Source of the DNA: a virus
Lineage: Duplodnaviria; Caudoviricetes
DNA length: 64,000 nt
Direction: 5' to 3' (one strand)
Virus record (IMG/VR): IMGVR_UViG_3300034166_000463
Coordinates: 6,642-70,641 of that record
The notes below the pieces were generated by a model. It had not been told where the DNA came from. It made no database searches and was given only the letters and a program-made list of their open reading frames with translations. A program made the position numbers and the translations under genes. Numbering within the stretch: position 1 is the stretch's first letter; each line of letters opens with the position of its first letter. Positions 3,608-62,619 of the stretch are shown in pieces.

Positions 3608-3615
3608 TTTTAGTC

Positions 3616-4029
3616 ATGGCTAAAAAATCGACAAAAAAAAGAACCAACATCGAACGACCTTACTGCAATGGAGAATGGACAGAAGCCAGATATACAAGCT
3701 TTATCAAAAGCGCCTTGCGAGGAGCTAGGTGGCCCGAAAAATACCGAGCCATCAACCTTGCCTTCGTCGAGCACGGAATCAACCCCGCCACTGGGCGCAA
3801 ATGCAAGCTACACAAATGCTCCGTATGCGGAAATCTATTCCCCCAAAACGCTGTTCAAGCGGATCATATTATCCCAGTTGTCGGATCAGAAGGATTCGTC
3901 TCATGGGATCGGTTTATTCAGAGGCTGTTTTGTCCCGCAGAAGGATTTCGTGTCGTCTGCAAAAAGTGCCACGGCGAAATAACAGCGCAAGAACGTATCG
4001 GAAGACAGTTTAACAAGCTGCTTTCATAA
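3616..4029 (+). CDS. HNH endonuclease
   Basis: CSVC...QADHIIPV...CKKCH Zn/HNH motifs. Confidence 0.85.
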   Translation: MAKKSTKKRTNIERPYCNGEWTEARYTSFIKSALRGARWPEKYRAINLAFVEHGINPATGRKCKLHKCSVCGNLFPQNAVQADHIIPVVGSEGFVSWDRFIQRLFCPAEGFRVVCKKCHGEITAQERIGRQFNKLLS

Positions 4030-4298: not shown

Positions 4299-5306
4299 AT
4301 GAGCCACAATATAACTGAACGCGACATTCAAGCAGCATCTACACAAGCTTGGCACGGACTAACTACCATTGTAGATACGGTAACACGGGAAAACTCCATG
4401 CCATTCGACGTGGTAGAAAGCCCTATCTACTACAAAGTGCAAAAGCCACACGACACAATTCCTGACTTTTATCAGGACGTGATGATCGAATCCCCTGAGT
4501 TCAAGCAACTCATTGCTAATGACGACTTCCTCCCAATCGGAGAACCGTATGGTAGCAGCTACCACCCCTCCACGGTGGAGACGTTCTGGAGCGTCATCGC
4601 TAAAGGAATGGAGGAAATTCCGTTCGAGATTGCTTCCGCTGGCACGGTAGACAACCGCTGCAAGCTATTTGCCTCTCTTAAAGTAACAGATGGATTCAAG
4701 ATCGGTGATCGTGAGTTCAACGACTTTATCACAGTAATCGACTCCTACGACAAAAGCACCAGCTTCCAAGCCCGCTACACCAATATCTGCGTAGTTTGCG
4801 CCAATACGTTCGCAGCATCCATGCAAACCGGACAGACCATCGGTAAAGCCAAGCACACACTCAACCTTGATGTAAACATCGAACGGCTTGTTGTAGCCAT
4901 GAAAAACTTCATGGGAACAAGTAAAGTTTACCAAGAAGTCTTGAGTCAGGCTGATCGCACGGTATGCTCACCAGACGAAGCTCGCGCATGGCTCACTGGT
5001 ATCGAAGGGCGGAATACTGAAAATCTCTCCAACGGACTCAAACAAAAAGGAGCAAGAATGATGGAACTGTTCACTGGTGGACGAGGAAACGTAGGACGCA
5101 CACGCCTTGACGCATTCTCAGCGCTCACAGAGTTCCATAGTCATGAATCTTCCAACCGCAAAAGCAATGGCTCTCAATACTACTCCTCAGAGTGGGGAAC
5201 ATCGGCTCAAGTGAAAACGCTTGCTATTACCGCACTGGAGAAAGACTGGACACGCCATGTAAGACATGGTGAAAAGCTCCTTACCGAAGAAATGCTAACC
5301 GTTTAA
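4299..5306 (+). CDS. DUF932/DUF945-family protein
   Basis: MSHNI...AWHGL, SYDKST...VVCANT, KHT and TRLDAFSALTEF motifs. Confidence 0.85.
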   Translation: MSHNITERDIQAASTQAWHGLTTIVDTVTRENSMPFDVVESPIYYKVQKPHDTIPDFYQDVMIESPEFKQLIANDDFLPIGEPYGSSYHPSTVETFWSVIAKGMEEIPFEIASAGTVDNRCKLFASLKVTDGFKIGDREFNDFITVIDSYDKSTSFQARYTNICVVCANTFAASMQTGQTIGKAKHTLNLDVNIERLVVAMKNFMGTSKVYQEVLSQADRTVCSPDEARAWLTGIEGRNTENLSNGLKQKGARMMELFTGGRGNVGRTRLDAFSALTEFHSHESSNRKSNGSQYYSSEWGTSAQVKTLAITALEKDWTRHVRHGEKLLTEEMLTV

Positions 5307-5309
5307 ATC

Positions 5310-5579
5310 ATGAAGAAAAAAAAAGAATTTCCATGCGCTGATCTTCTTGGAGAAGCGAGACTAGACGGATATGATTTAATTCATGACTTATCGTTTATCA
5401 CAGCAAGTCTTCGCAATGCGTATAAAGCTGGCGATTTTGATAACAATGAAGAATTGTGTTTAAAAGAAGCTAAAGCCTCAAAAGAAGCAATCTGCACAAT
5501 GATTAACTCTTTAATGAAGATTAGAGACAAAATCACATTTTTTCAGGCATGGGCTGAAGACAACTCGCCACTTAAATAA
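5310..5579 (+). CDS. hypothetical protein
   Basis: Tightly packed ORF. Confidence 0.6.
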   Translation: MKKKKEFPCADLLGEARLDGYDLIHDLSFITASLRNAYKAGDFDNNEELCLKEAKASKEAICTMINSLMKIRDKITFFQAWAEDNSPLK

Positions 5580-5581
5580 TC

Positions 5582-5710
5582 ATGAGGCCACCAACCAACT
5601 GGGCAGCCATCAAAGCTTGGTGCATCGAAAACAACGCCTCAATATGGGACATCCTAGACTGGCGACCTGTTGATGGGGTGTATCGCTTAGCCACTAAACA
5701 AAAGCCATGA
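5582..5710 (+). CDS. small hypothetical protein (42 aa)
   Basis: MRPPTNWAAIKAW...; its TGA overlaps ATG 5707 (ATGA coupling). Confidence 0.5.
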   Translation: MRPPTNWAAIKAWCIENNASIWDILDWRPVDGVYRLATKQKP

Positions 5711-5715
5711 AAACC

Positions 5716-5832
5716 AACGCCTAGCTCTGGCACCGCGCCGGAAGCGCGTGCCGCAACTCACAAATCTATGAACCAAAATCAAGACTCCGACAACACAGCA
5801 AGCGCGGTTGCTCCAGCAGCGCCTTGTTCATC
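5716..5832 (-). mobile_element. attC-like site C
   Basis: AAC-GCCTA-GCTCTGGCACCGCGC...GCGCGG-T-TGCTCCAGCAGC-GCCTT-GTTCATC; left half nearly identical to site E. Confidence 0.85.
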
Positions 5833-6046
5833 CATTACGGTCCGATTCGTCGACGACACCCAAACTGGCAGATGCTGGTTCGAGGAAAAGCTCACAAATG
5901 GCCAGTGGGCGATGATCCCAGAAACCAAGATGACCTGCGAAGGCAACTCTCGGCACTCCCTCGCGGAAGTGATCGAGCGTCGTCGCCAGCAACGCCTGAT
6001 GATATTCCGCAACGTCGGCAAGGAGGAGGTCATTCCCATTCGATGA
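5768..6046 (+). CDS. cassette-borne hypothetical protein
   Basis: ATG in the loop of site C; GC-rich; ends at GATGAAC, the complement of GTTCATC. Confidence 0.75.
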   Translation: MNQNQDSDNTASAVAPAAPCSSITVRFVDDTQTGRCWFEEKLTNGQWAMIPETKMTCEGNSRHSLAEVIERRRQQRLMIFRNVGKEEVIPIR

Positions 6047-6169
6047 ACGATCAAATCCAGCCATGAGCCTTCCCAAAATCTGCACGTGCCCCACGGTCCC
6101 ATCTGCGGACTGCCCGTTCCACCACCAAGAAGCTCGTGGCTCATTGGCTGCGATGCCGGGTTCAGCTTC
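6046..6169 (-). mobile_element. attC-like site D
   Basis: AAC-GATCAA-ATC-CAGCCA-TGAGCC pairs with GGCTCA-T-TGGCTG-C-GAT-GCCGG-GTT, a clean stem with two extrahelical bases. Confidence 0.9.
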
Positions 6170-6587
6170 GGTTGACGCCATTTTGTCCAGCGACAGTGGC
6201 GACAGTTCGCTGATCCACAACCTCGCAACTCGTGCCCGCGAAATGGAGGCGCTTGCCACCACGCTGATGCGGACATGCTACGACGAAGCGAACAGGCTCG
6301 CGAACCACGGCAGCAGCGGACTTGAAAACAGGGTTATGTCTCAACTCTACGACGCCGCCAACGACGCGAAGAAGAAGCTGAACTTTATGTTCGACGTAGC
6401 TTTCACGGTCGAAGGACCTTGGGAGCTTCCTGAGGATGTCCCAGCAATCCAATTAATTGCTGGACTTCAAAAAAGAATTACAGATTTGACATTAGCCCAT
6501 GCAAATAAGTCAGAAGACATTACCGAAGCGTTTGGGTATTGCGATTCTTATAAAGTCGATGAACCCCCAGAAGTAAAATTCTTTTAG
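6063..6587 (+). CDS. chimeric ORF: cassette D protein fused in frame to the interrupted resident gene
   Basis: GC-rich part ends at GAAGCTGAAC (6374-6383). The remainder (FMFDVAFTVEG...) continues the orphan start ATG AAA ACC AAC at 5707. Confidence 0.75.
   Translation: MSLPKICTCPTVPSADCPFHHQEARGSLAAMPGSASVDAILSSDSGDSSLIHNLATRAREMEALATTLMRTCYDEANRLANHGSSGLENRVMSQLYDAANDAKKKLNFMFDVAFTVEGPWELPEDVPAIQLIAGLQKRITDLTLAHANKSEDITEAFGYCDSYKVDEPPEVKFF
6381..6394 (-). other. attI-like/secondary recombination target at array boundary
   Basis: AAC-TTTAT-GTTCGA, the same architecture as 643-656. Confidence 0.65.
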
Positions 6588-6601
6588 CCTTGACTAAAAA
6601 T

Positions 6602-6823
6602 ATGAGCAATACCATTACACTCCTCCCTCACATCATCGTAGATGGCTACTGGGTAGACGACCGCACCAAGTTCGAGGGGTATGTCATATCCCAATCCAAT
6701 GACATCGAAGAAGATGACGACAGCATCTTCTTCTACGGGTTAACCGAGTCCGAAATCGCTGAGTCACTTGGCAAAGAAACAAGTGAGGACTTTGTAATCA
6801 CCCATTATGAAATCGACAACTAA
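6602..6823 (+). CDS. small acidic hypothetical protein
   Basis: DGYW-DD...DDSIFFYGL pattern; very acidic. Confidence 0.65.
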   Translation: MSNTITLLPHIIVDGYWVDDRTKFEGYVISQSNDIEEDDDSIFFYGLTESEIAESLGKETSEDFVITHYEIDN

Positions 6824-6874
6824 ACAAACTGGTCAATGCCATATTGACCGTTTTTATTCTCACCAAAATAACAA

Positions 6875-7885
6875 ATGAACAAACCACTATATTACCAAAA
6901 CTGCCTTATCCAACCAGAAGATTTTTCCGATCTTTCAGAAAGATTCCGTGTTCCTTACGACACTGTTGCTGAAGTCATTGAGCAAATGCAAGAAGACGGA
7001 TTCCCAAATTGGGCTTCATACACAGGAACCATCCGACAAAGAATCGGCCAAATGGTAGATAACATTTCTCTTGAGCCAGAAAAGCCCTCTGAGGAAGCTC
7101 AAGAAGAGTCCGTGGTAGAAAGCCCCAAAGAAGAGCAAGAAAGCCTAGAACCGCTCCCTGTAAGCGAAGAAGACGACATTGTTGAACACGCTGCAATTTC
7201 TTTGATGCAAGCCATGTCCGAAACCAAAACTGGAAGCTTCATTATTACCGAAGATGGAATTTGCACAATTAACAAAAGCTCACCTCCTTCACTTATTGAG
7301 TCATACGAAGTAGTTGCAAACGTCTTGAAGCTACGCGACCTAGCTCCTAAAATGGAAGACAAGACCTCATGGATGCTTGGATCAATCATTGATGAGCTTG
7401 AAAATCTGCATGGAGAAAACTTCGAAGTAGGACAAGTAGCAGAAACCACAGACAAATCCTTGAATACCATCTGGACAACCGTTAGCGTCTATCGTGCATT
7501 CAAGAAAAAGCGTTACAAGCTGTCATTCTCATCCCACAAAGAAGCATTCCATCAAAAGATTCCAGATGAATCAAAGCATCTAATTCTTCACAAAGCAGAA
7601 GTGTTCAAGCTTGGACCAAAACCAATTCGCCACCTAGCCTGCATCGTCAAGACTATGGGAGACGATCAGGTGATTAAAAACATCCGAAGCAAGCAACAAG
7701 CAGAAGACCTTATTCTAGCGCACAAATCAAACAAAGTAACCTATCTTGTTTTTGATGATGGTTGGAGACGCATTAGCGGAACCGCATCATCTATCCCGCA
7801 AGGTAAAGTTGTAATCGACTTGAAGAACTGGACGGCAAGAGCAAATAACGGAGAACCTGTAGAAATCAAAAAAAGCAAAGCTTAA
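6875..7885 (+). CDS. putative DNA-binding protein (LmbU-like motif)
   Basis: WMLG...TIWTTVSVYRAF...R...LSFSSHKE resembles the LmbU-type pattern. Confidence 0.4.
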   Translation: MNKPLYYQNCLIQPEDFSDLSERFRVPYDTVAEVIEQMQEDGFPNWASYTGTIRQRIGQMVDNISLEPEKPSEEAQEESVVESPKEEQESLEPLPVSEEDDIVEHAAISLMQAMSETKTGSFIITEDGICTINKSSPPSLIESYEVVANVLKLRDLAPKMEDKTSWMLGSIIDELENLHGENFEVGQVAETTDKSLNTIWTTVSVYRAFKKKRYKLSFSSHKEAFHQKIPDESKHLILHKAEVFKLGPKPIRHLACIVKTMGDDQVIKNIRSKQQAEDLILAHKSNKVTYLVFDDGWRRISGTASSIPQGKVVIDLKNWTARANNGEPVEIKKSKA

Positions 7886-14970: not shown

Positions 14971-17900
14971 TTACTGTTTCTCGTTTTTTACTGGCTCCCG
15001 CAATCTATCTTGCATAAAGCCTCTAGACTCACGAGTTCCCGGCAACACTTCAGACATAAAATAAAGCAAGCTGTCTTTAAGCGATATTCCTTTGTTGCTA
15101 GAAGCGTAATCCGTCATGTTGTAATCAAGAAGCAATTTAGCAGCAGCAGCGTAATCATAAGCAGCCGCAGTTGGAGCGGTAAATTCAGCCGTTCCTTCCA
15201 AAAAGCCCGGACGATATTCTCTGATATTTGCGGTATTTCGTTCAACATCCATAAACAATGCCGCAGCCTCTTCAGAACCGGGATTTGTAAAAGCCTTGTC
15301 AATCAAACCACGAACAGGAGAATAACCAAATGCAACACCCGCAAGAGGAATTGCTGTAATAGATTCCTGAGCAGTTGTGTTTAATATCTCCGCTAAAGCG
15401 GATGCCTGCGCTTCATCTACTGTTCCACGGTCTTGAAACAAAGGGCGATCCTTACCAAAGATCACCGCCATTATCGCACGATGGATGACATTTGAATCTT
15501 CGTTCGGGACAATAAGATCATTTGTCACTTGTTGCGCACGTAGCACTGCCTCGTCATCGTCATCGTCACCTGCTTTGAAAACTAAATACAACACGGCTGG
15601 AAGAAGCATCTTCAGCTTCATTGGGTAAAATAGGATGTTCTGGGTAAGCGTTGTGGCTACATTCTCCATCGCCTCCCTGCGACTATCCTCCGCATCTTTC
15701 TCGCTCACGTAGTAATAGTCCATTTCAGATAAGCCCCTTTCTTGCTGCGTAAACATGGTATGAGTCAGCACAGACGTATTACTAGATGTTGAAGCAGTAT
15801 GATTGCTAAACCTAACTAAGCTTTTCCAAAAAGCATTGAGGACAGGGCTTTGGTCACGTGTTTGGAAGAACCAGCTCTTCTTAGATTGGTCAGATTGAGC
15901 CATTACATCATTGACTTTTAGCTTAGCCTGTTGAGCCAATTCTTTTGTTACATCATTCTTGCGAAGCAAAACATCATCAACTGTTTTGACGTTCATCTTC
16001 TCAGCAAGTTCTATCATGAAAATTGTCCCCGCCAACATACGCTCAGGCTTTCCAATCGTAAAACTTAACGTTTTTTCAGCAAAGCGCTCGTAAGCCCTAA
16101 GGCCTCGTCCAACTTTAGCTTTTACTTGGCCCACTCCGTATCGCTCTTGTCCACGAATCATATCCTCTGCTACATCTTGACCGTCAGATGCGCGATAGTA
16201 AACATACGGACTTGTCTTCTGAATAAAGTCCCTAACCTCATTCCTGAATTTGCTGCTAGTTAGCATTTTAGATAATGTGGAAAAATACAAACCAACAGAC
16301 TTGGGCTTGTTTGCAACCAACTTGCCTACAGTGTAGCCAAAGCTAGGACTAACTGACTGATCCCACCATTGAAGAGGAGAAGCCAAAGCTCGCATAATAT
16401 ACATCGAGCTAAGAAATCGGAGTGTTTCAGCCCCACCAGTTTGAGCTGTTCCAATGGCAGAATCGTTCTGGACAATTGTCTCAAGCTCGTAAGCTACCGC
16501 CGCAAAAGCCGTATTAGCGTCTTTTTTCCATCTGTAATGCTCATTGTTGCGGGCATTTATTTCACGGATAGTTTCAAATTCGTCTAAGTTTTCCCCGAAT
16601 GATTGTAAAGTGTCCTCCATGTCTGAGTCTGTGATTTCAATCGGACCATGAGGAGCCCTTACTTTACCTATTGAATGACGCAATATTTCGTAAGAAGGAG
16701 TGACGTTAAGGCGGTAAATGGCATCATCAACCATTGAAAGAGGGGTAGATAAACCGTTTACCATAACAGGACGATAAACCCTATTGCGCTCAAACGGCTC
16801 ACCCTTAGCAATTCCACCGAAGAAAGCAGCTTCATCCAAAGCTACAATTTCAATCGGATCAGAAATGTAACGACCCTCTCGGCCTTGCTTGCGGGCAGTT
16901 GGGTCTTTTGCGTAGCCAAGACGCATCGGGACATTTGTTGCGGTTGGTTTAAACGCTTGGATGTCTGCGTGTTTCCATTTTGTTTTCTCGTCCAGTGCAT
17001 CAACATCCCTGCCTTTCTTGGATGACAAAGCTAAAGACAAGTGCATAGCTGCATCAATGTCAGCAAAAACACTAGAAAGGGTTTTGGCGTAAGCATCCAC
17101 CTCGGACTTCTTGTTGTCCTCAATTGCATCAATCAATGCCGACTCAAGATCAGCAATCGCTTTCTCTGCTTTTTCCTCAGCTAATGGATCATTGTTCTTG
17201 ATTGAAATAACACTCGTGGCTTTTCGCATGATTGCATCAATCTCAGTTGCAAGCGGCTGATCACGGACAAGATCAAGGTGTCCTCCGCTCCAGTATTTAG
17301 AAACCTTGTTTTTACCATATTTTTTTTCCTGCGCTATTACAAAGTCTTGTGATTGGCGATGACCAAAATTCTGCTGTGTTGCCCATGTAGTGTAAGCGTG
17401 AGCCAAAGACATGCCATGAGCGTCTTTAATTCCACGGATTTGAGCCAGTAAATAGCCAATAGCATGATTCTTAGCACTGCTGCCGACTTCTTTTGCTGAA
17501 TTACCTATTTCTTCCTTTGCTATCCTGCGTGAGGTTTCATAACCTTCACGGCCACTAACCCCATCAAAACCATGGTCAAGAATGCCAACCAAATGACGAA
17601 CAGCCTGCTTTGCTGAAAAACTCTTACGAAAACGGCTACGAATACGGGCATCATGATGGTGAGCTAACCTCATCATTGTAAGATCAGTGTTACTGTCAGA
17701 TACAGTCATACCTGCAACTATGCGCTTAGCAATCAAGTCAGCTTCCAATGCGGAAAAAACCAAAGAGAAAGTTTTTTCAATCTTGAAAAGCTGCATACTT
17801 TCAGTGACCAGCTTGCCAGCGTCTTCCATTTTGAACGTAAAGCTCCGAGGCATCCCGTTCTCCCCCTTGGTATCGGTATCAATATCGTCAATCTTCGCCA

Positions 17901-20900
17901 TGAATTTCATGACTTCGCTTTTAACGTGCATGTAACGATTGCCTTCAAGCTTTCCAGAGCTGTAAGCCAAAACGATCTGACGAATCAAAGACTTCGATTG
18001 GGACATGGCCGCTTTCGTAATCCGACCATCCATCTTGATCGTTTTAGCTTTGCCGTTTGAGTGGCGGTTTCGGATGTCTCCTAGCCATTTAGTGATGCGA
18101 GCCTCAAACTCGTCGGCAAAAGCGTCGGCTACTTCGGCGCGGGTCATGTCTGGCTTTGCAAGCCTCCATTCTTCACGCTTGTTTGTCACCTCGTTAAGCT
18201 TGTCGATGGATTTGAACTTAGCGTCAGTATCCTTGTTAACTTCCTCAAAGAAATAGGATGGCGTTTGCGTTCCTTGGGATTGGTTTCCGCTAAGCGATTG
18301 AGCCGCCATGGCGACATGGGCGATCTCACTGTTCACATTTTTTCTCGTAACCGTGGGGAATGCTCTGATCATCTCATCCGCTGCCGTAGTCGGCATCAGG
18401 ATCATCGACATTCCTTCTTCCTTGTGATACATCCCAATGCGTTCAAGTCTCTCCTCAAAGTTCTGCGGAAGACGGATTAAGTTGACGGTGTTCTTTTTGC
18501 TTCTCTTGAGAAGGTTGTAGCGGTTAGCGTCTTTCGGATCGGTGAGGATTGCCACCGCATTATCCATCATTCCACGGTAATTTGCCTCCGCCGCTTCTGA
18601 CTTAGCCTGACTAAAGTAGTCATCAAGAAGCTTCATTTCAATCTTCGCCATCTCAACAGATATCTCAATGGTTCCAAGTGGATCAAATTCCACAAAGTTC
18701 TCCTCGGTGTTTCGTTGGTCACGATAGACATCTTCAAGGCGCTCCTCCGCGAATTCGCTGAGAGCCCTCACAATGGCCTCTTTTTGCGCGTAGAATGCCC
18801 TTCTCTGGGCTTTCAAGCTCGCGCTGGAAGCCTCATCCATAGAGGGCTGATCACCCGTCCACGCCTCCCGTGCAGCAACGCCTGATTCAGTCAACCCAAG
18901 ACCCTTGGCAACCAATGTAATATTCACCCCAGCCTCACGGGTCATTGGCTCAATTCCCGGAAGAATTTGATTGTTATCCTGACCAACCGCTGGAACACCA
19001 ACAACTCCACGATGGTAAGTTTTTCCAATTGGCTGACTATAGTCAGTATGGTCGATTAAATCCAATGCCGCCTGATTCGCAGCCAAGCCACGAGAAATAA
19101 CATCCAACTGAATCTCCAGCTTATTGACAAGATCACGCTGCTCAGCAGTTTGTCCCTTGTTAATGTAGGAAGGATCATCGGTAGCAAGTGAGCGATCATA
19201 CAGCGCATCCTCTTCAGCAAAAGAAAGGTAAATGCTTTCAACGTATTCAGAAAAAGGCTTTCCGTTCGGATCGGTTTTTAACCGCTCGGTCATCATATCC
19301 AAAGCGGAAGTAATCTCACTAGCCAAATCGAAATTATCAAGATCGCGCCCCTCTTCCATCCGTTGACGGACAAGCTTGATGAAGTTCTTAACTTGGGCGT
19401 TGCGCCTAGTGTCCTTACCTACTGGAATGCTTTTTTGTTTAGTCTTGCCTGAAGACTCAGCAAGCTCTTGGGCGATGCTGTCAGCGAAAGCAGCCGCAAT
19501 GGTTCTTTCGGCATGTTGCATCAACTGCCCTTTGAACTTAGCGGTGCTATCCACGCCAAAAGACCTACGACGCAAGCTGATCAAATCCTGAGGACTAATG
19601 GAATCGGGATTTCCCAGAATATAAGGCAAGCGATAACCTTTGGTGGAGCCATCAATACCAATCAAGGCCATTCCTTGCTTGGTTATACTATCCAAAACAA
19701 GGTTAACAACATCCACGTTCGCGTTGTAAGAGCGGATTAAGTCACCAATGCGCGTCTCGTTTTCTTCGGGTGAAACTATTGTGCGGAAAGGATTAGCACC
19801 GCTTTCAATTAGAACCGTGTCTTCATTTTGCTCACTAAAAATATTACGAACAAAAAGCTCACGATTAATTGTATCAAGAAGCGTAGCCATCTGGTTGAAA
19901 GAAGCCTTAAACAAAGGATCGTTACGGAACTGTCTACGGACGAAAGAAGACATTCCTTTGGCAACTTGATCAACTTTGCCTTCCTCAAAAATCACGCTCT
20001 CTTGAAGCATATCAGCTAAGCGCTGAGCAAAGCGCTGAGGGTATCCCATCATATCGCTAACTTCCTTTGTTACTTTTCCGCGAGGAAAAGAAACTCTTTT
20101 TTCTAGTGCTTCATAAAGCTCGTAATGTTTCTTGGCTTGAGCCTTTGTCATTTTACTGACGTTTTTTTCAAGTCTTGCAATTTCATCTCTAACTTCTTGC
20201 TCCGCTTGATCCATGTAACCAGCAGGAAGAATGTTGCGAAGCTCTTCAATAATATCGTCGCTCATCTCAATCTCAAGATTGATTCCCTTGAATCTCTTAA
20301 GTTGAGAATAGTCCAGCGAGCTTTTGTTGTTAGCAGCGTCGATGCGGGTTTTCTCAAGGCTCTGACGGATGGCCTCCTCAGCCTTAAGTTTAATCCGCTT
20401 CTGGACGTAAGGGGAAAGCTGGAGAACATTAGCGTTCATGTTGCTAATTCGCCTATCAGCAAATCCTTGCGTAAGCGAAGTGCGATTACCCGGAAGTGAA
20501 GGACGACCTAGGTTCTTAGCCTCACCAACGTAAATCTTTCCAGCATTCTCCTTCCATGCAACCGGAGCTACTACAGGCTGAGCCAATTCATTTCCTTTAA
20601 TCTCATCTTCATCACGAAGATATCCGGGCTTCTCAAGCATCTCGCGAGCATCACGGCTAGGCTTTAAAGGCTGAACCCCTTCACGAGCCTTCATAGCCGA
20701 GGCAATAATTGAATTAAGACTGTTAAGCAAAACAATGTCAGCATCAGAGTAGAACGCGGACTTACCGGTGAAATAAGATCCCCCACCATTAGCCATTATC
20801 ATCCCCATAATTTCAGACTTTACCTTATCGGAAAAGCCAGAGGTGACTGAGAATATTGCGTCGGTAAGATTATCCTCTTCTTCAACAACCTCAATCTCTC

Positions 20901-23900
20901 CATTCAGTCTCGCTTCCTCCTCGGCATTAGCCTGAGCTAAACGCTCAGCCCTTTCTTGCTGACCTTCCTCAAAGCCTTGAATAGCTTCTTCATCGGCATC
21001 GGAACGCTCGATTACCGAAGACTCGGAAATCCAATCCGCTTCCGTGCCTCCAAGCTCAACTTCACCGGATCGTGCAATGTCCATCACAGCATTGATCAAA
21101 CTATCTCCAACAACATCAGGAAGGAAAGACGGGGCAAGCGACTCAATGCCGGAATACGCTTGGTCAAAAAACTGCTTGGCCTTGGAATTGGAAAAGATTG
21201 TTCCAACCAAAAGAAGATTTGCAGCAAAAGTTGCATCTCCACCGAAAAGAGCGATTTGGTCAGCGGTTAACTCACCAACCTCTAATTCACGAGCAAGCTC
21301 AATGGACTTGATGAACTGAGCTTTAACTAGCTCGCGGATTCTTTTTTGTTGAGAATCAGTAAATTCAACAGGAGAACCTTGAATCAAGCGCTGGAAGTTT
21401 GCTTCAATTGCTTCATTTGAAGTGGACGTATCAATGGTAGTCTTCCTCCATTTTCCAACAGGACTTGTCTGAGATTCAATTGACTCAGCCCTAATTACAG
21501 GATTAAGCGTGGCATTTACCTTCCCAGCTAAATCGTTTACCATGTCTACAATCGAAGCGTTTTTCTTGGATTGAATAGAAAGGCTGTGAGCAATTACCAT
21601 CGTAGCCTCATCCACCATGCGCTTGTCACGCATAGATACAGACTGAGGAACGTAGATAACATTTGGATTACCGTTTCTTCCCTCAAAGATTCGGATGCCC
21701 GTATCGGAAAGCTGGTGCTTGGCGGCAGTTGCCTCATCTGGAATCACCGCAATTGTATTACCGGGAAGTGTAAGAAGAAATTGCTCAATGATCGGACCAA
21801 CCGTAGAATTAAGAAAAGTAACTTTAGAAGCGTCGATCACTTGACGGCTGTTTTCGGGCTTCATTACCTCTGAGTGAGCGAGTCTCCAGATGTTCCTTGC
21901 TTCCTCGGATGAGGCGAAGGTGTTGTTGCCTTCGTCTAGGATTGGTTTGTTTTTTTTGTTTTTGTTTTTGTTGTTGAATTGGACAAGCGCGTCATCCGAC
22001 TCAAGCAAGGTAACATCCGCATACTCAATAATGGTTTGAAGAACCATCGAAGCAACCCCCTTATCTTTGACGATAGAGCGGTCAATCATTTCTCTTTCAA
22101 AACTCGCCTTGAACGAAGCCAAATCATGCAGGAACCTTTCAGAAGAAGTAAAGTTGTAGCCGTTATTGCTTCCATATTGCTCAAGGAATCCCTTCCTGAT
22201 CTCATCAAAGAAATCCTTACGAGCAGGATTGATGTTTGGAAAAATTCCTACAAGACCACGTTCAAGCAGGGACTTGTCACGCATTACCTTGAAGTAATTC
22301 CTAAGCTGAGTTTGATCCATTGCGTTTAGGTCATCCTCACTAAATTCCTCCAGCCTTTCAACCTGATCCTCAACGTAAGTGTCTTGAGTTCCCAAAAACG
22401 GACTTCCATCATCAACTCTACGGCTAACTGTCTCCATCCTGCTATATCTAGGAGCCGTCCCCATGCGGCGGCGATCCTCCAAAACTTCCTCTACGGTCAC
22501 AAAACCATCCTCGTCAGCCTGTAATAGATCGAAGTAGAAGACGCGCCCTGCGGTGGCGCTACGCCCTGTAGGAGTGTTTGAACCTATAAGTAAGCTCCAC
22601 TGTGCAACTAAGCGCTCGCGGGCTACCTGAAGGCTACTAGCACGGCGCTTAGCTGCCTCACGTTGACTGGAAGCTGCACCAGACTTCACTTCATCCATTC
22701 CCTCAAGAAGAGGAGAATCCTCGCCAGTAAGGAAAGGACGGGAGCGAACATCATCAAAGCCAGCTTGCTGAGAACTCACTACGATTTCATTGTAGTTGGT
22801 AAGCTGAGACTGTTTTCGATAAAAATAACGACCGTCCTTGTCTTGTTTAAGCTCAGAATATTCAGGGACATTTGGATGAGTAAGCGTTCCATCTTCTTTA
22901 GTTGTGACTAAATTGGCTACACTATCAGGCAGGTAAACATCATACTCTTCGGCTTCAGTATAAACATACGGCTCATATCCCTCCCCAAAACTAAGGCGAT
23001 CAAACGCCTCCTCCATCTCAAAACCGAAGTTGGCAGAAAACTGGTAGTCGCGCTCCTTCTCGAAATACTTCATCGCAAAAGACAAGTTCTTCAACGTCCT
23101 AGGACTAAGTGCCGTATCGCGGAGCTTAATGAGCTGTTCGTATTCTGGAACGTAAGCAGCATCCGTAACTGTCCGATTGCCCTCCTTCTCCACATTGCTC
23201 CTCCACTTACGATCCATGAAAGCCTTTGTCTGCTTGCGAACCAAGTTCACAGCCTGAACAGACTCATAAAGAGAACGATCAAACATCGCTTTTTGATTAC
23301 CCTCCCCTACAACTTTAATCAAATTTTCAGCAAGATCAGTAAGCTTCTTTTTGTCCACTCCAGCTTTGAGAACAGGAAGCCCGTTGCTTAAAACAAGCGT
23401 GTCGGCGCTTTTTAGATAGGCCCTATCCATCGAGACGTTCTTAACCTCGACGTATTCCATGACTTTCAGCATCAAGGCTTCGTGCATCCTACGAATTTGC
23501 AAATCCAAGCCATTAGTCAGCGTCCCATTATCTGTTTCATTGCTGAAGGCTTGGTCAAAGATTGGAAGCGAACGCCCAGCAAGTGTCTGCATTCCGCCAA
23601 TCCTAGGCATAAACTCAGAGCCTTGATATAAGCTCCTGATCTTGGTGGACCACTGGCGCATTTCTTCTAGGTAAGAGAAGAGATCGGCAACAACTTTGAT
23701 TGGGTCTTCGTTGTTATCGCCCCTGAATCCTCTCTTAAGTCTACGAAGCCCTCCTACAAGCCTGTTGAGCTTTTGGTGATCAAAGATCGGCATGGCCTCT
23801 AGTAAGCTTTCGTAGCGCACGGAGTCATCGTCAGGATTAACTGTCTTGTCGAATGAGAATCCAGCGGTCTGAGCGTAAGTGTCGATCATTTCGACATTGC

Positions 23901-26900
23901 GAATCGCTCCAATGTTTTCAGCAACAAAAAAGTCAGCAAAAGCATTACGTCCGGAAGCCGTGAAATTTGATTCAGTATCATGTCGATACCTTTCAAGCCC
24001 TGCATTCCACTCACGCTCCGCTGGGGTAAGTCCTTCATCTCCGGGTCTTTCCCACTTAGAATTGGGATCAAGCCCAATAGCTAATCCATCAGCTTCAGTT
24101 TGACCAACGGCAGATTCAGTTCTCTGAGGATAGATGAAGCGCGAAGAATACGAATAAGGAGCATCCGCGTTTGAATTATCGTATCCGTTCTGATGCTCGT
24201 ATGGAAAAATATTGGAGTAACCAACATCCTGAACAACATCAAGCAAATCATCTACCCCAGTATCAACTGGAGGAAGAGACGAGTAAGAATTAGGGTTTTC
24301 AGATTCAGGATTAATAGCCTGAACCTTAATCGCCGTTCCGAAGCCAACCGTCCTCAAGCCAAACTCACCGATAGCACGGTTCTTAGCTGTCTTCAGGGCG
24401 TAGTTGTAATCATCCACCGCACGGGTAAAAGCGATGACAGATTTGTAGTCATCTCCTAAGGAGTCCTTTTGTTCCAGCTTTGGAAGGATGTCGGAATTAG
24501 GAAGGTTTTTGGTGTGCTGGATTCTTGCGTTGTGTGCCTTGCGAATCTCTTGGATTTCTTCAATAACGCTTTGCTCTTTTGCAACATAGGCATCAAACAA
24601 AGACTTTGCTTCACCACGTAAGCCGTTGCCAAAATCATTCTTTTGATCACTAGCAGCCATCTCATCAGACCACATAGGAAGGCGCTGAAGAAGGAGCTTC
24701 AAATGGTTTTCCATCTTAACAGCCAACTCTTCAGGGGTAATCGTAGAATCCTGATCCGCAATGTAATCACGAGTCTCCAAATCTACACCTACCAACAAAT
24801 CCCTGTTTAGCCTGACTAAATCAATACTGTGTGGATTCAGCTTCATCGCTTTACTCCATTCAATAAGCTTACGCTTACCAGCAAACGTAGAAAGGTCTAA
24901 ACCATCAAGCTCTTCCCTTGCGTGATTTTCAAGCGCTTGATGAGCCATTCTTGCTTCGATGATACGTGGTTGGACACTAGACAGCATTGCTTGCTTGATT
25001 CTTTCGCTTCCGTCGATGACTTCAGAGTGAGAAACACTCCCAGTCATATCTTCAAATAGCTTAGTGAACAGCTTCTCACGATCAATGCGGGTGATGCCCT
25101 CACGATCCGGCTTCATCGCACCAGTCCACAAATCCATATCAGAGAACTGAGCGGGAAGGGAATCACGAAGCAACTGAAGCTTCTCCCACTTCAAAAAGAC
25201 TCCTGTGCGTATCTTCTTCATCGCAGGGGTTTGGTCTTCCGAGTAGCCACCCTTTCCATTCAGTCGGTCAAACTGATCATCAAGAGCCTTCATGTCGAAC
25301 TTCTCACGCTCTAGCAAAGCCCTGAATTCAGGATGTAACCCGATCTCCATCGTTTCAGGATCATGGACAATGGCTATATCAATCGAGATGCGATTGGATG
25401 CGGCAATCCGGTTGCGAAGCTGCCTCATCGGGAACGAATTATTCCTAGCGATGATTTGAAGTTCAGACTCCAAGCTCTTATTGTAAAGCTCCTCCATCTT
25501 TGTCCGCTGAGCTATCGTATCGCTATGAGCGTTCAAAACATCCACGTTCAATCCAGATTCCTTAGTAGCGTCAATCAAGCGTCTCAACGGCTCCTGAAGG
25601 TTGCTCGGAAGCATTCCACGGTGGGTGTTGATCCAAAGGATTGTGCGCATCCTTTCGGCGTAGCGACGAACCATATGACCAATCGCCTTCAAATACTTCA
25701 CCAAGCCTCCCTTTTCCCTTGCGTTGCTCTCATCAAGGATAATTGCCTGCTGAAGCATCTTGGATAGCTGTGACTGGCGTTCTGTCGTAGTTCCCGTCAA
25801 GGCCATCTGCACAAACTTACGCAATAGCTCTCCAGAGATTTCCTGACGTTGCTTCTCGGTTGCTCCTTTCTCATTGTTTGGATCTAGGCTTTTGGTAACG
25901 CCCCTCTCCGAAGCTACCTTTTTTAACTCCTCAAAAAGCGGGTGATCCTTGATCTTGCCTTCCGCAACACCTTTCGATTCTTGCTCCGTGCGAAACTCAT
26001 TGTTCAAATCCCAAAGATTGTCATAGTAGCTAAGAAGTTCTTTTGGGGTAAACGTCCCGTAAGTAACAATGTGGATTCCCTCTTCGCTTAAGACGCTTGT
26101 AATAAGAGCCGCAGCATCATACGCCAAAAGCTCTTGGGCAAATTGATTGCCCGTGTCTGAATTAAAATAAAGAGCAACTAGCTCCTTCTTAAGCTTATCG
26201 TAATCAACAACAATAGATGATGGTTTTTTGGAGCCTTTCTCAGCAGGTTCAGCAAAAATGTAACCATCCCCGTTAATCTTCCGTTGCACAACTTTGAAGT
26301 TATTTCTTGGCGCGACAACCGAAAGAAGTTCTTTAAAAATGGTCTCTACTTCAGCAATGGTAATTTCACCATTAGAGAAGCGGGACATCATAGGCACAAT
26401 ACTCTTGATCGACCTATCGAGAATTGAGCGTGTGTATCTAGCGGAGGTTTTGCGTAGCTGATCATTTAGCGAGTTCTGATTGGCAGCATCAAAGTCAATG
26501 TTTAACGCCTCAAAAATAAGCTCGCCATCCACAACCTTTTTCAGCATCAGAACCTGCTTGTCGTTGCCAGCAATCACAACCGTATCGCCAACACCCATTG
26601 TTGAAGCCATTCCCTTAGGGGGCATGTAGCCATAGCGCTCTTTTCCATTCTCAGAAGACTTGCGTGACCATTTGGCTCCAGCTGCGTCCGTGCCGCCTTT
26701 AAGGGTGGCTTCCTCAACAATGTAGGTTGTTTCAGGATCAAGTCCGTCAGTGATGCTTGGCGCGTCAGCAATAGCCGCTGCCCGCATCGGGACATGACCG
26801 TCTTCGCTCAGCTTTTGAATCGCTTTGATTGTATTGCTAACTCGGTTGCTCGGCCTGTCTGTTTCTGTCTTTGCGTATTCAGCAGCAATAAGTTCTGGCG

Positions 26901-29900
26901 TAGCCGCAATACCATCGCGATCAAGCCGTGCTGCAATGATCTGCTCCGGGGTTTTGGGTTCCTCTTTGACTTCCTCTTCTACTTGCAGCCCTTTGGTTTC
27001 GTCCCCTTGGTTTTCGGTTTGTTTTTCATTTGGTTGTTTTGTTTGTTGTTTTTCTATTTCTGCAATCTTTGGTTCTGCTTTAGTGGATGCTGGAGCGGGT
27101 GCTTCTGTTTTAGCTTGAACTAAAGATAGGCTGGAAGTTTGAACGGTTTTTCTTTTGTCGCCAACTTTAACAAAAGCCATTTTTGCACGACCAGATAAAT
27201 CAAAAGTAGAATCATCATACCCTAGAAACTCAACTTCCGATGGAGCGCTTCCATCAGAAGGAATGTAGGTAAGTTTATCTCCCGGCGCGGCTTTTACTGC
27301 TGCTGGAGAAGGTGCACCAGCGTCTGGCTGTCGTGTCTGCTCAGTCCCGCCATCGCCTGTAGTTCTGCTATCGCGGTCATCTTGGGGCGGAGCGCTATCT
27401 CTTGGACGCGTTTCGCTGAGAGGTGCGATTTGCTTATTATCTGCATCAACTGTTGTGCTTTGTTTACTGGTTTCATTTGTCCATTCATCATATTGTTGAG
27501 CTTTTTCGTCTGGGGTTGCGTTAACGATACGCTCTAGTTGGGCGGCTTCTGTATTCCTACCGCTGTCCTTAAGTTGTTTTTGAGCTTGCGCAGGAGTCAG
27601 ATAAGCAGGCTCGGAAGCCACTTTTTTACCAAGTCCCTTCTTAGTAATCCTTACCATCTTGAACGCTACGTTATCGTTGCGCTTCCCGCTTGCATCACTG
27701 ACAGCATGAATCGGAGTGAGTTCGTAGCTTCCTTCTTTGTCCTTGTAGGTGGCCTTGCTTCCCTCAACAGTTTTAGAATCACGCGACCACTCGCGACCAG
27801 CAGGAGCCTCCTCGCCAATGCTTTGCATTACCTGACCCAGCGAACCTTTTGGATAAGCCCTCTGAGAGGCCGCTGAAGCCGCCTGTGTTGAACTAGGGGG
27901 GGTAGTGCCAGAAACGTTGGAGGGAGGCGCTTGAGTGGAGGCGGAAACCAAAGAAGAAGGCATCGCTTGATAAACACCAATACCTCTTGCTGCACGGACA
28001 AGCATTGCTGATTTTTGCTCAATGTCCTTTTGTGGATCTGAATCAAGCTCAGTAGCCATAATTTCGGAAAAGTTCATAGCCTTCCCGCTAACATCCATTA
28101 TACCATTATCTTTACTGAAATTCCCAACATTTGTCTCAATTGCCTTCCACTTGTCGCTCATCGCATTGAGAGCATCAGACTTGCCGAAAACCGATGGAGC
28201 ATTAGTAGCTGCTCCAATGCTAGCACCCATGCCGCCACCAATAGCGCCAAGAACACCCGCCTTAACATATTCTTTCCAATTCTCACCAATGTTTCCCCAG
28301 AAATCTTCTTTCCAAGTTTTGGAATCGTCGAGCATTGCGCTAATCGAATCCGAAATAATTCCGTCAGCCGCCTCTTCCACAGCCTCAGCGCCAATGTTGC
28401 CAGCAACACCAATACCTTTCAGCCCCATTTTCCTAGCCGCATCATTCATCTCCTGAGCAATGTCCCTAGCAAACTGCTTTCTAAGACCAGCGCCAGCATC
28501 ACCAGCTAAATGCTCAAGAGCATCTTGAGTGGCTTTCATTCCTTCTTTCTGAACAACCCGATTGCGAAGGTTCTGAATTAGGCTTGTTCCAACTCCCTCA
28601 TCCCCCATGCCAAGCGCCTTACCCATACCCGGAGCAACACGGTTCATTACCCCAGTGGCAATCATCACAGCAAGGCCATTAGAAATGCCTTCGATATTCG
28701 CAGCCTTTAAAGCCTCGTCACGGTTTCCAGTCCTTTCGTAAGCTTCGTTGAACGCGTTTCCAAAACCCATTCCAGTAGCTTGAAGCGATCCAATGTAAAG
28801 CTCTGGATCAGTGGCAGCAGCCTTCAGCCAACCACCCATTTTAGCAGGAATGCTAATTTTAGGCAAAGTTCCACCAGCCTTCAGCAAGTCTTTAGCCGCA
28901 GCTAAACTCGTTGCTTTTGCTGTCGCTGACTTCAAAACAAGATCACCTCCAGGTCCTGCCGCATAACGACTTGCTCCTACCGCACCAGCTTTTGCTAAGC
29001 TCTTCCCAGCCAAGGCTCCCATGCCACCCATCGCAACAAACGAACCAACCTGACCAGTAAGCTGGGTTAAGTCCCTACGAGTGATGTCTATCCCAAAAGC
29101 TGAAAACTGAGTTGTGTTACTGTAGGCCTTTGCAGTATCTTCAGCTAGTCCACCAAACGCCTCAGCAGGAGAAGTGTAATTCCCAAAACTGGCTAACCAC
29201 AAAGCACCAGTTCCAGTTGCCATCACCGCATCACGAAGAGTTCCAGCAACCTCAGAAGCCACTCCATATGAATCTTTACTGAACCTCTCCTTGCGAGCCT
29301 TGATAAACTCGTAAGCGGAGGCTCCGGGCTTGCTCATCTCTTCTGCAAATTCATCACTTAAAGGACGACTAAACATGGAGCCAATCACCCCAGCATCGGC
29401 AGCCGCAAAAGCATTTACTATTTTGCCAGCATTGGCTTCGACCTGCGAGCGATAATCACCAAGCAAAATCTTTTTATCAGCAAGAGACAACTCTTCATTT
29501 GAATTGATGGCATTTTCCATCTTATCAATCTCAGAATAGTTCATGGAATTAAGAACCCATTGACCTCCAACTTTCTGCATCATTACGTCTTCACCTAAAG
29601 TTTCAGGCGTATACAATTCACGAGCCATCCTTTGAGACCATTGTTTCTTAAGCTCCTTGTTCTCTGGATCAATCTTTGCTTCGTCGCTTTTTACATTCGA
29701 ATTTGCATACGAAACAAAATCCTCCCAAGCTAAACTAGCTGTCTCATCTTCGGTTGCGAGCGCATTCTTTTCAGACATCCAATTTTGAAGATCACTAAAA
29801 GGATCAAACTGTTTTTGCCTGTCAAGTATTGGAGATAAATGCTGAGGAGCTACGAATTCCTGATCAAACCGATCCCACTCCACGCCACCAGATTCATCTT

Positions 29901-48550: not shown

Positions 48551-48562
48551 TTTTAGTCAGGA

Positions 48563-50899
48563 CTAAATTTGCGTGGACTTAAGACGAGTCATTTTTGCTT
48601 GTGTCTCAGCGTCTCTTGTAATAATTGAAGACATTGCTTTTTGAGCTGCTTGAACTTGCGTCTGAGCCCCTATCTCTTTAATCATCTGAAGCTTGGCTAC
48701 ATGAGCCTCCATCATTTGTTGGAGTTTTTGCTTATGAAGCATATCCTTTTCTTGAAGCTTTGCTTGCGTTGCTTTTGCTTGGGCTTGTAGAGCTGCATCA
48801 TCTGGACTCATTCCATCTTGAGCTTTCTGTGGATCTTCCATTTCACCGTCTCTAACCTTTTTCTCCATTGCTTTCATGCCATTTACGACAATCTCGCCAA
48901 TTTGCTGAACCAGTTCTTGATACTTGTTCAATTCAGGTTGAATACCCTTATAGACAGTAGTAACTGCCAATGTGTCAACGCAATGCTTGTAGAGCATTTG
49001 ATACTTCATTGTCCATTCGATCAGATCAACTTCACCAGTTTCAACGCCTTCCAAACCTGCTTCAAGAGCCGGAATGTGAGCAGATAGATGCACCATATGA
49101 TTCTCTCCATCCGTAGGAGCAATGTAATCACTCTCAAGAAGCTCCATGTTTTCAAGCTCTGCAATCTTGAAATCGTAAGGAAGACGCTTCTCATTTGGTT
49201 TCCCTGTGTATCGCTCCGCCTTATCAACTCCTAAGAGCTCAACAAGGTAATCATATTCAAAGTTGGAACGACCAACTGCATCAAATGTAGAGTATAGTTG
49301 CTGAACTTGATCAAGCAACATGATTCGACTTGCACGAGAACCCGTCCCAATAATCCGAGTTGCTTTAACTCGTTTGAAATCAATCTTACCAAAGGCGTCA
49401 GCAGGAACGCCACGAGCGACACATCGAGCCTTCATTTCATTAACCCGCTTCCTAGCTTGCTTGTCTTTCTGCCTAACAGTGAAAGCACGTTTAACTTTCT
49501 CCCTCATGATTTTATCATACGGGCCATAAAAAAGATTGATTGCAAAACTGTTTAGCTTGTTAATGTAATCTAACTGCGAACTCACTTCTAGCTTCGTCCT
49601 GCGATCTTGCTCTGGATTCATTACCATATTACCAGAAGCCAAACCACCAGTGGCGCGATTCAAAATCCTTCGACTTTCTTCAATTGCAGGAATCAATGAG
49701 TTGTTTAGGTTCTGGCTCATCTGCCGTTCTGGAATCTTCATTGTTGGAGGCAGACAAATAAAGCCGCCAGCATCAATCAATTGAGAATCCTGAAGGTCTT
49801 CAACGCTCGAAGGCTGAACAATAAGCGACGATCCAATCCTAGCATTGTCCAGAAGCTTACAGTGCATTACATCCATTGCAGTGCAAAGCTGGTAGATAAG
49901 ATAGCCAAGACCACGAACTGTATACAAAAGTCCACCATTGCCTACATTAAAGGTGAAAAGTTGAAAAGCCTCGTCAACGGAATCGTAGAAATCACGTTGC
50001 TTAAACAAAAATTCTTCTTTGCCCTTTCCTCCTTCAGCAGCGTCCAATGTGGTAATGTAAAAGCTAATTTTCCCATTGAATTCTTTTACCCAAAGGAAAA
50101 TAACCTCGACTGGTTCAGCCACAGTGGAAACATAAACCTCATTGGATTTAATGTCTCGCTGGACTTGCTCCCAGTTACCCCATGTCTGGCTTTTGATTTT
50201 GGATGTAGTGTTAACAATAGCCCTCTTTACGGCTTTTTCATTCCATCCATCAAGAGCGCCTTCTCCAATTTTCCCATACAAATCAGTTACAGTCATTGTT
50301 CCTGAAGCGGCTGCAACCTCAACGCCACTTGAAACAATACCAGTGCTTCTTGGAAATTTGAATTTATCAAGTCCAGCTACTGAGTATTGCATCGTTTGCT
50401 TATCGTCAAAGAAAGCAACTCCAACTCCATGAGTGACATAAGTGTCTGATAACTGCAAATGCAACGGAAGGCTTTTGTCATCGCTACGATCCATCGTAGT
50501 AAACTCTTCAGCCATAATTTGAGACCACGTATCAGCGTAGTTCTCATCTATTTCTTTTGAAAGAGGAATTTCCGCCAGAGTTTTTGGATTGGCGTAAATA
50601 TCAAGATAGGCTGAAACAGCTTCGTTCTTGATTGCTGGACCTTCCCCTGTAGTAATATTGAACCTATCAGACTGCCCTTTGTTCTCTAGCTCTTCTTCAT
50701 CATGCGGAGGAATGAAATCCATTAAGCCCTGAACCAACGAGCGATTAAAGGAACCTGATTCATCATCAGATTCCATCTTCCTAAAGATTCCACGAGCAGC
50801 TTCAGGAGTGCTTATTCTTTCTGGTGGCGCTTCTAGTGTTTCGTCATCAAGCAACTTGAGATCGTCCAAAGCTTGTTCCGTATCTGAAAATAGAGCCAT
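48563..50899 (-). CDS. portal protein
   Basis: 778 aa downstream of TerL; ENHMVHL motif and Gln/Ala-rich C-terminal barrel. Confidence 0.8.
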   Translation of the reverse strand: MALFSDTEQALDDLKLLDDETLEAPPERISTPEAARGIFRKMESDDESGSFNRSLVQGLMDFIPPHDEEELENKGQSDRFNITTGEGPAIKNEAVSAYLDIYANPKTLAEIPLSKEIDENYADTWSQIMAEEFTTMDRSDDKSLPLHLQLSDTYVTHGVGVAFFDDKQTMQYSVAGLDKFKFPRSTGIVSSGVEVAAASGTMTVTDLYGKIGEGALDGWNEKAVKRAIVNTTSKIKSQTWGNWEQVQRDIKSNEVYVSTVAEPVEVIFLWVKEFNGKISFYITTLDAAEGGKGKEEFLFKQRDFYDSVDEAFQLFTFNVGNGGLLYTVRGLGYLIYQLCTAMDVMHCKLLDNARIGSSLIVQPSSVEDLQDSQLIDAGGFICLPPTMKIPERQMSQNLNNSLIPAIEESRRILNRATGGLASGNMVMNPEQDRRTKLEVSSQLDYINKLNSFAINLFYGPYDKIMREKVKRAFTVRQKDKQARKRVNEMKARCVARGVPADAFGKIDFKRVKATRIIGTGSRASRIMLLDQVQQLYSTFDAVGRSNFEYDYLVELLGVDKAERYTGKPNEKRLPYDFKIAELENMELLESDYIAPTDGENHMVHLSAHIPALEAGLEGVETGEVDLIEWTMKYQMLYKHCVDTLAVTTVYKGIQPELNKYQELVQQIGEIVVNGMKAMEKKVRDGEMEDPQKAQDGMSPDDAALQAQAKATQAKLQEKDMLHKQKLQQMMEAHVAKLQMIKEIGAQTQVQAAQKAMSSIITRDAETQAKMTRLKSTQI

Positions 50900-54200: not shown

Positions 54201-54728
54201 TTAGATGTCGATGGTCGGGCGGGGAGAGAAGCCTTGAGTTGCAAGGATGTTAACGGTTGTAGAGCCGTTAGAGGAAGCGGAGCCTGAGGGATCAATAGCA
54301 TCTTTCATTAGCTTATTAGCGGTTGCAGCTTCAGCGAAAGTTTGTGGGACGGGTGACATGGCGAAGAAGCGAGCGAGAGCTTTCTGAGCGCCTTGATACA
54401 CTTGTTCACGAGCGTCTTGTTGCCTTGTCTCCCACAGGCCTAATACAGCGGCAGTTGCAGGATCGGAAGCAATGGTCTCGTTTTTAGTCATGGCTAAACG
54501 CTGTTTAGTGAGCCATTTCTCTTTACAGGAGCGGGCGCGGATGAGTTGGGCGGTGACACCATAGTTCTTAGCGAGCTCTCCATAGGTTACTCCCTTCTCA
54601 GCCAGAGAGCGTATGACAGGCCAGTCAGAGTCCCTTACCTTCTTGTGAGGCATACGGGACAGAAGCATTTCAGGAGCCGCTTGTGGGGCATCCTGAGGCG
54701 ATTGAGGGGGTGGTTGTTCATCGGACAT
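54201..54728 (-). CDS. terminase small subunit (HTH)
   Basis: DWPVIRSLAEKGVTYGELAKNYGV...RSCKEKW N-terminal HTH; same strand as and upstream of terL. Confidence 0.7.
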   Translation of the reverse strand: MSDEQPPPQSPQDAPQAAPEMLLSRMPHKKVRDSDWPVIRSLAEKGVTYGELAKNYGVTAQLIRARSCKEKWLTKQRLAMTKNETIASDPATAAVLGLWETRQQDAREQVYQGAQKALARFFAMSPVPQTFAEAATANKLMKDAIDPSGSASSNGSTTVNILATQGFSPRPTIDI

Positions 54729-62615: not shown

Positions 62616-62619
62616 AAAC

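Follow-up and report, generated by a model that had tools for sequence, protein, structure and literature searches.

Integrons are known chiefly as bacterial platforms for gene capture, and reports of them in phages are few. One such report screened 10,705 genomes and found parts of integrons in 21 phages, 17 of them as clusters of attC sites lacking an integrase (CALINs), and it shows that attCs from virulent phages recombine with the integron integrase IntI1 (Qi et al., 2023; PMC9892861). Insertion of cassettes outside the attI site has been described just recently, and PMC12614218 and PMC12901181 credit insertion at so-called attG sites to Loot et al. (2024). Here we describe a locus in the virus record IMGVR_UViG_3300034166_000463 (Caudoviricetes) at which, judging from the sequence, two integron cassettes (5719-6383) have very probably been inserted by an integron integrase (IntI) at a secondary AAC/GTT site, into codon 4 of a resident phage gene. 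All positions refer to the window, the whole stretch of 64,000 nucleotides that we analyzed, which represents bases 6642-70641 of a 70,641-bp record that is linear and 100% complete according to CheckV. The phage carrying the insertion is of a virulent type and its source is a lake-water metagenome.

The locus resembles what is reported for attG insertion: attC-bearing cassettes lie at a bare GTT/AAC away from attI, nothing is duplicated, and one attC junction is a hybrid. Comparison of empty and occupied alleles found all of the features expected of such a secondary site (GTT/AAC outside attI, no duplication, cassette polarity kept). The locus would differ in that the target is a phage gene, that before and after alleles exist in nature, that two cassettes are present, and that an in-frame fusion results. 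With the phages of Qi et al. (2023) it shares the occurrence of integrase-less attC clusters in virulent phages; however, those were isolated phages from NCBI, and the available portion of that study mentions no empty-site comparison, within-gene insertion, or reversed polarity, whereas the phage here is uncultured, comes from lake water, and carries an attC family common to Verrucomicrobiota. The repeats described below are like integron attC sites in forming hairpins with an R box, a 5-nt spacer, an L box, bulges at 16, 20, and 24, and a variable terminal structure. They also have an AAC crossover, delimit circularly permuted single-ORF units in same-strand arrays, and show the canonical attC polarity relative to intI, which points away from the array. 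Unlike in classical integrons, the ORFs here lie on the attC bottom strand with the ATG inside attC and a stop often supplied by the next cassette (AAC GCC TAG), so that arrays are read towards intI; in addition, the fourth R-box base is mostly C or G and the carrier is a phage record without intI.

In the occupied allele, the sequence ATG AAA ACC AAC (5707-5718) overlaps the TGA of an upstream 42-aa ORF (5582-5710, plus strand) and is followed directly by GCC TAG. This leaves an orphan start, the 5-codon mini-ORF MKTNA* (5707-5724, plus strand), composed of four native codons and of GCC TAG from the first cassette, cassette C. The triplet AAC is present twice: as the putative left crossover triplet (5716-5718, plus strand) and as the right junction triplet (6381-6383, plus strand), where it forms the final codon of the second cassette, cassette D. 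On the other strand the left target reads GTTGGTT, which matches the GTTRRRY consensus given by Nivina (2016) at 6 of 7 positions. The second AAC is followed by TTT ATG TTC GAC in the frame of the ORF at 6063-6587, and the body of the resident 71-aa gene, from codon 5 to the stop, occupies 6384-6587 (plus strand). Excising 665 bp joins the start to TTT ATG TTC GAC in frame. A preliminary description of this DNA had noted the orphan start at 5707, coupled through ATGA to the preceding ORF and cut off by the first insertion site, as well as an insert richer in GC than its flanks; every detail of its account of the sequence was found in place, and the GC content is 0.577 in the insert vs. 0.382 (5200-5581) and 0.413 (6384-7000) in the flanks. 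An assembly chimera, in which a GC-rich element was joined to a phage contig, is barely conceivable: with a metagenomic sample and attC repeats, assemblers can go astray, but contigs from an independent run (X3) bridge the occupied-allele junctions at 5718, 6048, and 6383 with zero differences, and both the reading frames and the AAC logic are exact.

The observation goes beyond chance because natural uninterrupted alleles of the resident gene exist. Viral contigs L001 and L002, which were fetched by means of the neighboring DUF932 gene, lose homology to the window at 5579 and regain it at 6381, the position at which blastn alignments to relatives restart; window positions 6384-6587 are 86-90% identical to their aligned intact alleles. 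A metagenome scan with an alignment of the small target gene yielded 50 pattern matches and five confirmed loci, all five of them intact. Thus, seven related loci (L001, L002, and L049-L053) lack window positions 5719-6383 and instead carry an intact gene of 63-71 aa with the N-terminus MKTNFMFD. L050 and L053 appear to be contigs L001 and L002 again, so the seven loci represent at most five independent contigs, with four sequence types. L051 and L052 match the window at 97-98% identity in both flanks, have the same native start, and show precisely the junction predicted, confirming that the empty site could be reconstructed from the occupied allele. The predicted junction was also seen in a contig of run X16 in which 5715 is followed by 6381, so that 665 bases are missing and 3 are shared, with only 28 nt of the contig on the left side of the joint; an X16 contig also departs from the window after 6383. 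Taken together, the empty and occupied alleles support the earlier claim of conservative site-specific recombination at the shared AAC, with no target duplication beyond it.

The boundaries by themselves give no direction, and IntI reactions are reversible in principle; both points would fit an ancestral occupied allele from which the relatives lost the cassettes through precise excision. We give this alternative a very slim chance. All four relative sequence types are empty at 82-98% identity, the closest included, the GC content of the insert (0.577) is unlike that of the flanks (0.38-0.41), cassette D is 100% identical in unrelated records, implying recent arrival, and an attC partner with which excision could proceed is missing at the right junction. 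The conclusion that the cassettes were inserted here, and not excised elsewhere, rests on parsimony, GC content, and the 100% identity of cassette D in other records.

The left junction is shared with a family of repeated hairpins. A 19-mer at this junction is found at 288, 5716, and 63118 of the window and, as an exact match, in 23 viral-contig stretches that otherwise have no nucleotide similarity to the window. Upstream of the AAC, the sequence is unrelated in every copy; downstream of it lies an imperfect hairpin of 115-135 nt in which AACG pairs with UGUU and GCUCUGGCACC pairs with GGU[U]GC[U]CAG[G]AGC. At least five forms of the inner stem exist and carry compensatory changes (e.g., GC to CG, CG to UA in 5/19), and the right-arm nucleotides are translated in differing frames by different ORFs, which indicates that the constraint is on the nucleic acid and not on a protein. 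A covariance model of the hairpin family (R1) gave 80 matches at E<=1 in 26 sources and 67 matches at E<=0.001 in 20 sources; a second model (R2) was made from 67 R1 matches with the site of cassette D excluded. The matches form same-strand arrays with a spacing of ~230-840 bp, and their lengths of 60-147 nt compare with ~57-141 nt expected for attC, structure being kept more than sequence.

Nivina (2016) gives R' (RYYYAAC) and R'' (GTTRRRY) for the attC bottom strand, a crossover between A and C, an unpaired spacer of 5-6 nt, and extrahelical bases at 16 (G), 20, and 23/24 (T) near L''. In the hairpins described here, the AAC-GTT pairing is present in 18-19 of 19 aligned copies, and a central spacer of 5+5 nt is unpaired (consensus GCCTA opposite GACTT; in the attC of cassette D, GATCAA(A) opposite (ATG)CCGG). 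The 3' arm, GGT[T]GC[T]CAG[G]AGC-GACTT-GTTCnnn, places bulges at G16, T20, and T24 from the 3' end when assigned by eye, and the other stem variants retain the three-bulge pattern. The hairpins thus reproduce, in sequence and predicted pairing, the canonical attC layout, with C or G at the fourth R-box position as the sole deviation. The attC of cassette C (5710-5832, plus strand, bottom-strand sense) scored 95 bits with R1 (E 3.6e-30) and 79 bits with R2; its 5' R-box half is replaced by target sequence, which makes it a hybrid junction, and it is 87% identical to 63118-63215. The attC of cassette D (6040-6169, plus strand), whose L-box stem contains the ATG, scored 26.1 bits with R2 (E 3.5e-6, 6040-6166), and the R box, spacer, L stem, and 3'-arm bulges are visible in its DNA fold. 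Covariation and the family model support both candidate attC calls.

We rejected a sigma-54 promoter as the meaning of TGGCAC...TTGC, as these two elements are separated by 60-90 nt and form a stem together. Additional attC sites, all on the plus strand, are located at 21-140, 282-416, 63112-63233, 63550-63639, and 63869-63960 of the window, in two further GC-rich cassette islands around the window start and at the window/contig end, and one is found at 6382-6506 of L026. The cassette at 289-645 ends in GCGAAC, the complement of its own attC foot, and shows 91% identity to L023 382-741.

The insert divides into cassette C (5719-6048, plus strand, 330 bp, GC 0.567) and cassette D (6049-6383, plus strand, 335 bp). 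This split, proposed beforehand, proved right because R2, built without the site of D, detects an attC at 6040-6166; moreover, D alone is 100% identical in L027/L028. The 3' end of cassette C, GATGAAC (6042-6048), is the exact reverse complement, over 7 nt, of its own attC foot, GTTCATC (5826-5832), and the 3' end of cassette D, GAAGCTGAAC (6374-6383), is the reverse complement of GTTCAGCTTC (6160-6169) over 10 nt. Complementarity to the own foot over at least 7 nt was present in 22 of 33 cassettes (non-redundant adjacent pairs), compared with 7.4% of 1046 mismatched cassette pairs used as a null and 1/32 for the present 5' flank; in a related count, end-foot matches were found in 45/59 cases downstream vs. 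10/58 upstream. Such complementarity is as would be expected for circular, circularly permuted cassette units. The ORF of cassette C (5768-6046, plus strand, 92 aa) has its ATG in the attC loop and no Pfam or PHROG match. A protein-pattern scan of viral contigs found no relatives of cassette C, and in the Atlas its protein was present as an identical sequence with no usable neighbor (all TM <0.5).

Cassette D is far more widely represented. With its ORF as query, 14 viral loci were confirmed from 41 pattern matches: window positions 6045-6383 are 100% identical in L027/L028, 98.8% in L029, and 90.3% in L030, and a 100% identical cassette D is carried by an IntI-bearing viral record with terminal repeats. 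The flanks around these copies are unrelated, with at least five left contexts and at least eight right contexts; the break always falls immediately after AAC, and all D copies lose homology at 6381-6383. Cassette D is also modular: L033, L034, and L037 share just 6159-6383, and L038 and L040 share just the attC part with the N-terminal codons (6042-6171). These partial copies suggest that exchange may also take place at the second R-box half.

A mosaic break at the attC foot is also what ordinary phage mosaicism could produce, with homologous or illegitimate recombination between co-infecting phages and junctions that fall at AAC by chance. The phage encodes an Erf-like annealing protein, and the conserved ~120-nt attC could act as a homology patch. 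Still, this explanation has a slim chance: the junctions with the target share just 3-4 nt, the identical boundary recurs in at least eight contexts, and complementarity between a cassette end and its own attC foot is unexpected under homology-driven exchange. T4-type phages carry promoter stem-loop (PeSL) cassettes, in which small ORFs with repeated stem-loops on either side are shuffled within plastic genome regions, and this exchange is homology-driven via the promoter stem-loops. The locus described here is unlike PeSL cassettes in its exact AAC junctions, its attC-type hairpins, and its associated integrases.

The insertion has a direct consequence for the resident gene. The 174-aa ORF at 6063-6587 (plus strand) takes residues 1-107 from cassette D and residues 108-174 from codons 5-71 of the resident gene. 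The ORF of cassette D lacks a stop of its own, and D-family proteins all run to ...KKLN and then continue into tails that are unrelated. Because AAC is a codon in the target and also at the end of D, the D ORF fuses in frame, and the disrupted gene survives as an in-frame fusion to D, as the preliminary description had recognized. It had also named end-to-end conservation of 6063-6587 as an outcome that would contradict an insertion; instead, none of the 47 homologs of the 174-aa ORF covers more than 63% of it, and uninterrupted alleles exist. Ribosomal bypass or an intron was considered for the matched AAC codons and rejected, since a bypass of 665 nt would be too long, no ribozyme is present, and the units have turned out to be attC cassettes.

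Each cassette consists of attC minus the 5' R-box half, the ORF, and then the missing R-box half ending in AAC, and in the proposed IntI-mediated insertion it would presumably have passed through a circular intermediate. IntI, which we infer to be the catalyst and which could derive from the host or from a co-resident IntI-bearing element, would recombine the folded attC bottom strand with the secondary AAC/GTT in the phage gene. The crossover would fall inside the AAC triplet, which is why nothing is duplicated except the shared AAC. The product has a hybrid attC on the left, where AAC/GTT alone still pairs, and a bare junction on the right, and the original start is left behind as MKTNA*.

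Several points weigh against this interpretation. The 70.6-kb record contains no PF00589 tyrosine recombinase, PF01797 Y1 transposase, or PF00239 serine recombinase. The ORFs are on the attC bottom strand, opposite to classical cassettes, and most R boxes are GTTC/GAAC, vs. classical GTTR/YAAC, the deviation being at the fourth position. Taken alone, minimum free energy folds of the attC sites of C and D are no better than those of shuffled sequences (z -1.5 and -0.4, respectively). Lastly, the attC calls depend on our own covariance models and reading of the structure.

As the phage record itself encodes no such recombinase, another source of the enzyme is required. The phage record ends within a cassette array (attC at 63112, 63550, and 63869), and in two IntI-bearing records, G007 and G001, intI is directly downstream of such an array on the same strand, so an intI beyond the contig end is possible; an exact 32-mer scan of viral contigs for sequence past the right end of the contig found nothing. 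A tyrosine recombinase was present in five of the 10 viral records examined. Those of L045 and L046 are integron integrases, with TIGR02249 scores of 347 and 354 bits (cut-off 265) and VchIntI4 as best PDB match (E 3e-64), and that of L042 scored 194 bits, under the cut-off. The exact 19-mer was also found in six genome contigs, all six titled as Verrucomicrobiota metagenome-assembled genomes, and these contigs contain arrays. An integron integrase above the cut-off was detected in three of the four Verrucomicrobiota genomes searched (four of the six), and Verrucomicrobia are among the integron-bearing phyla listed by Cury et al. (2016).

These data also bear on hairpin-guided mobility without IntI, in which the units would be moved by, for example, a Y1 (HUH) transposase that works on single-stranded DNA, or by some unknown enzyme of the phage, and the likeness to attC would be convergent. 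Such a process would accommodate the missing recombinase in the phage's own record, a tyrosine recombinase in only five of 10 viral records, and the non-classical ORF polarity. It is highly improbable nonetheless, as the attC-specific details match (bulges 16, 20, and 24; 5-nt spacer; AAC crossover) and true integron integrases adjoin such arrays. The Y1 HUH transposase that would mark an IS200/IS605-type element is likewise missing, with no match to Y1_Tnp (PF01797) in the genome.

The reversed polarity is a property of the whole cassette family. The coding strand is the strand with the 5' AAC crossover and the 3'-arm bulges, which is the attC bottom strand. Among 35 cassettes, the plus-strand ORF was longer in 26, started within attC in 24, and stopped 6 nt into the next cassette in 12; 17 cassettes also had long minus-strand ORFs (GC-rich DNA). 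Third-codon-position bias backs the frame of D (0/0/3; 6/6/21 in L030 and 14/7/43 in L031), and plus-strand cassette ORFs of L030 have Pfam domains: PAPS_reduct at 24 bits (cut-off 22.5) and Acb2/Tad1 hairpin at 30.7 bits (cut-off 27). The two cassettes in question lie at L030 4714-5094 and 6090-7043 in an array that abuts an integron integrase gene, and Acb2/Tad1 is an anti-defence sponge family.

Since the polarity of attC relative to intI is classical, these arrays do not belong to the 'inverted integrase' group as defined by Cury et al. (2016). Our literature search, which left supplements including the tables of Qi et al. outside its scope, found no account of arrays whose ORFs all lie on the bottom strand of attC. 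We tentatively suggest that freshwater Verrucomicrobiota and their phages may share a reversed-polarity integron family, in which the gene is on the attC bottom strand, the start and first 10-25 codons are inside attC, the stop commonly comes from the next cassette (N-A-stop), and arrays are read towards intI. On this tentative reading, the arrays could serve phages as exchangeable banks of small genes, and, because many cassette ORFs are stop-less and read into what follows, stop-less cassettes could colonize ordinary genes at any in-frame AAC and thereby create new fusion proteins.

The region just 5' of the target gene is variable as well. The slot between an 89-aa ORF and the target gene measures 125 bp in the window and 0, ~290, or ~450 bp in relatives; the 42-aa ORF that occupies it in the window is missing from L001/L002, and the slots of L049 and L051/L052 hold other genes. 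The final ~30 nt ahead of the target ATG are homologous between the window and L052, so the 42-aa ORF belongs to the phage backbone and lies outside the insertion. The slot (5580-5706) and its equivalents in L049, L051, and L052 form a second, attC-independent hotspot of variation. The 42-aa piece (5582-5706) was considered as a third cassette and rejected: its ends pair with no foot, it scores 2.0 bits with R1, and its 3' end is homologous to the L052 backbone.

Database searches around the locus gave little. A blastn search of the phage GenBank collection with 4299-7885 returned no match, and Pfam and PHROGs searches of the ORFs of C, D, the target gene, and their neighbors returned solely DUF932 and phrog_1221, both on the 335-aa neighbor. 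An Rfam scan of 5500-6700 at E up to 10 gave two chance-level matches and no known RNA family. Elsewhere in the window, three GC-rich paralogous ORFs (61750-63126; 103, 185, and 180 aa) with repeated TPETDA, ERERDEAR, and QRDRLAEAL motifs lie directly upstream of the terminal cassette array, with no attC between them. A 17-nt palindromic motif of the type TTTTAGYCNYGRCTAAA is found at backbone gene boundaries (3608-3624, 6582-6598, 48551-48567, 54482-54498, and 60239-60255), as well as in L001 and L002, and may be a regulatory or terminator element. The minus strand contains a single 5098-aa ORF at 14971-30267; most of the large minus-strand ORFs have no PHROG match, one has a tail-fibre match, and primase/helicase and Erf-like matches are on the plus strand. 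Directly after the last cassette ORF, the contig ends (63963-64000) in a perfect 9-bp inverted repeat (CTCAAGCGC...GCGCTTGAG), which could mark a genuine terminus or a break in the assembly, or act as a terminator.

Together, the alleles described here provide a natural, base-exact before/after pair for cassette insertion into a phage gene, and the identical cassette D in an IntI-bearing viral record with terminal repeats is direct evidence that integron cassettes move between the genomes of lake-water phages. The reversed layout of ORF and attC would alter how cassettes are expressed and permits in-frame fusion on insertion. If general, this process would offer phages a route to gain and shuffle small accessory genes, possibly including anti-defence genes, and the assignment of genes to cassettes by integron-finding software would be affected as well.

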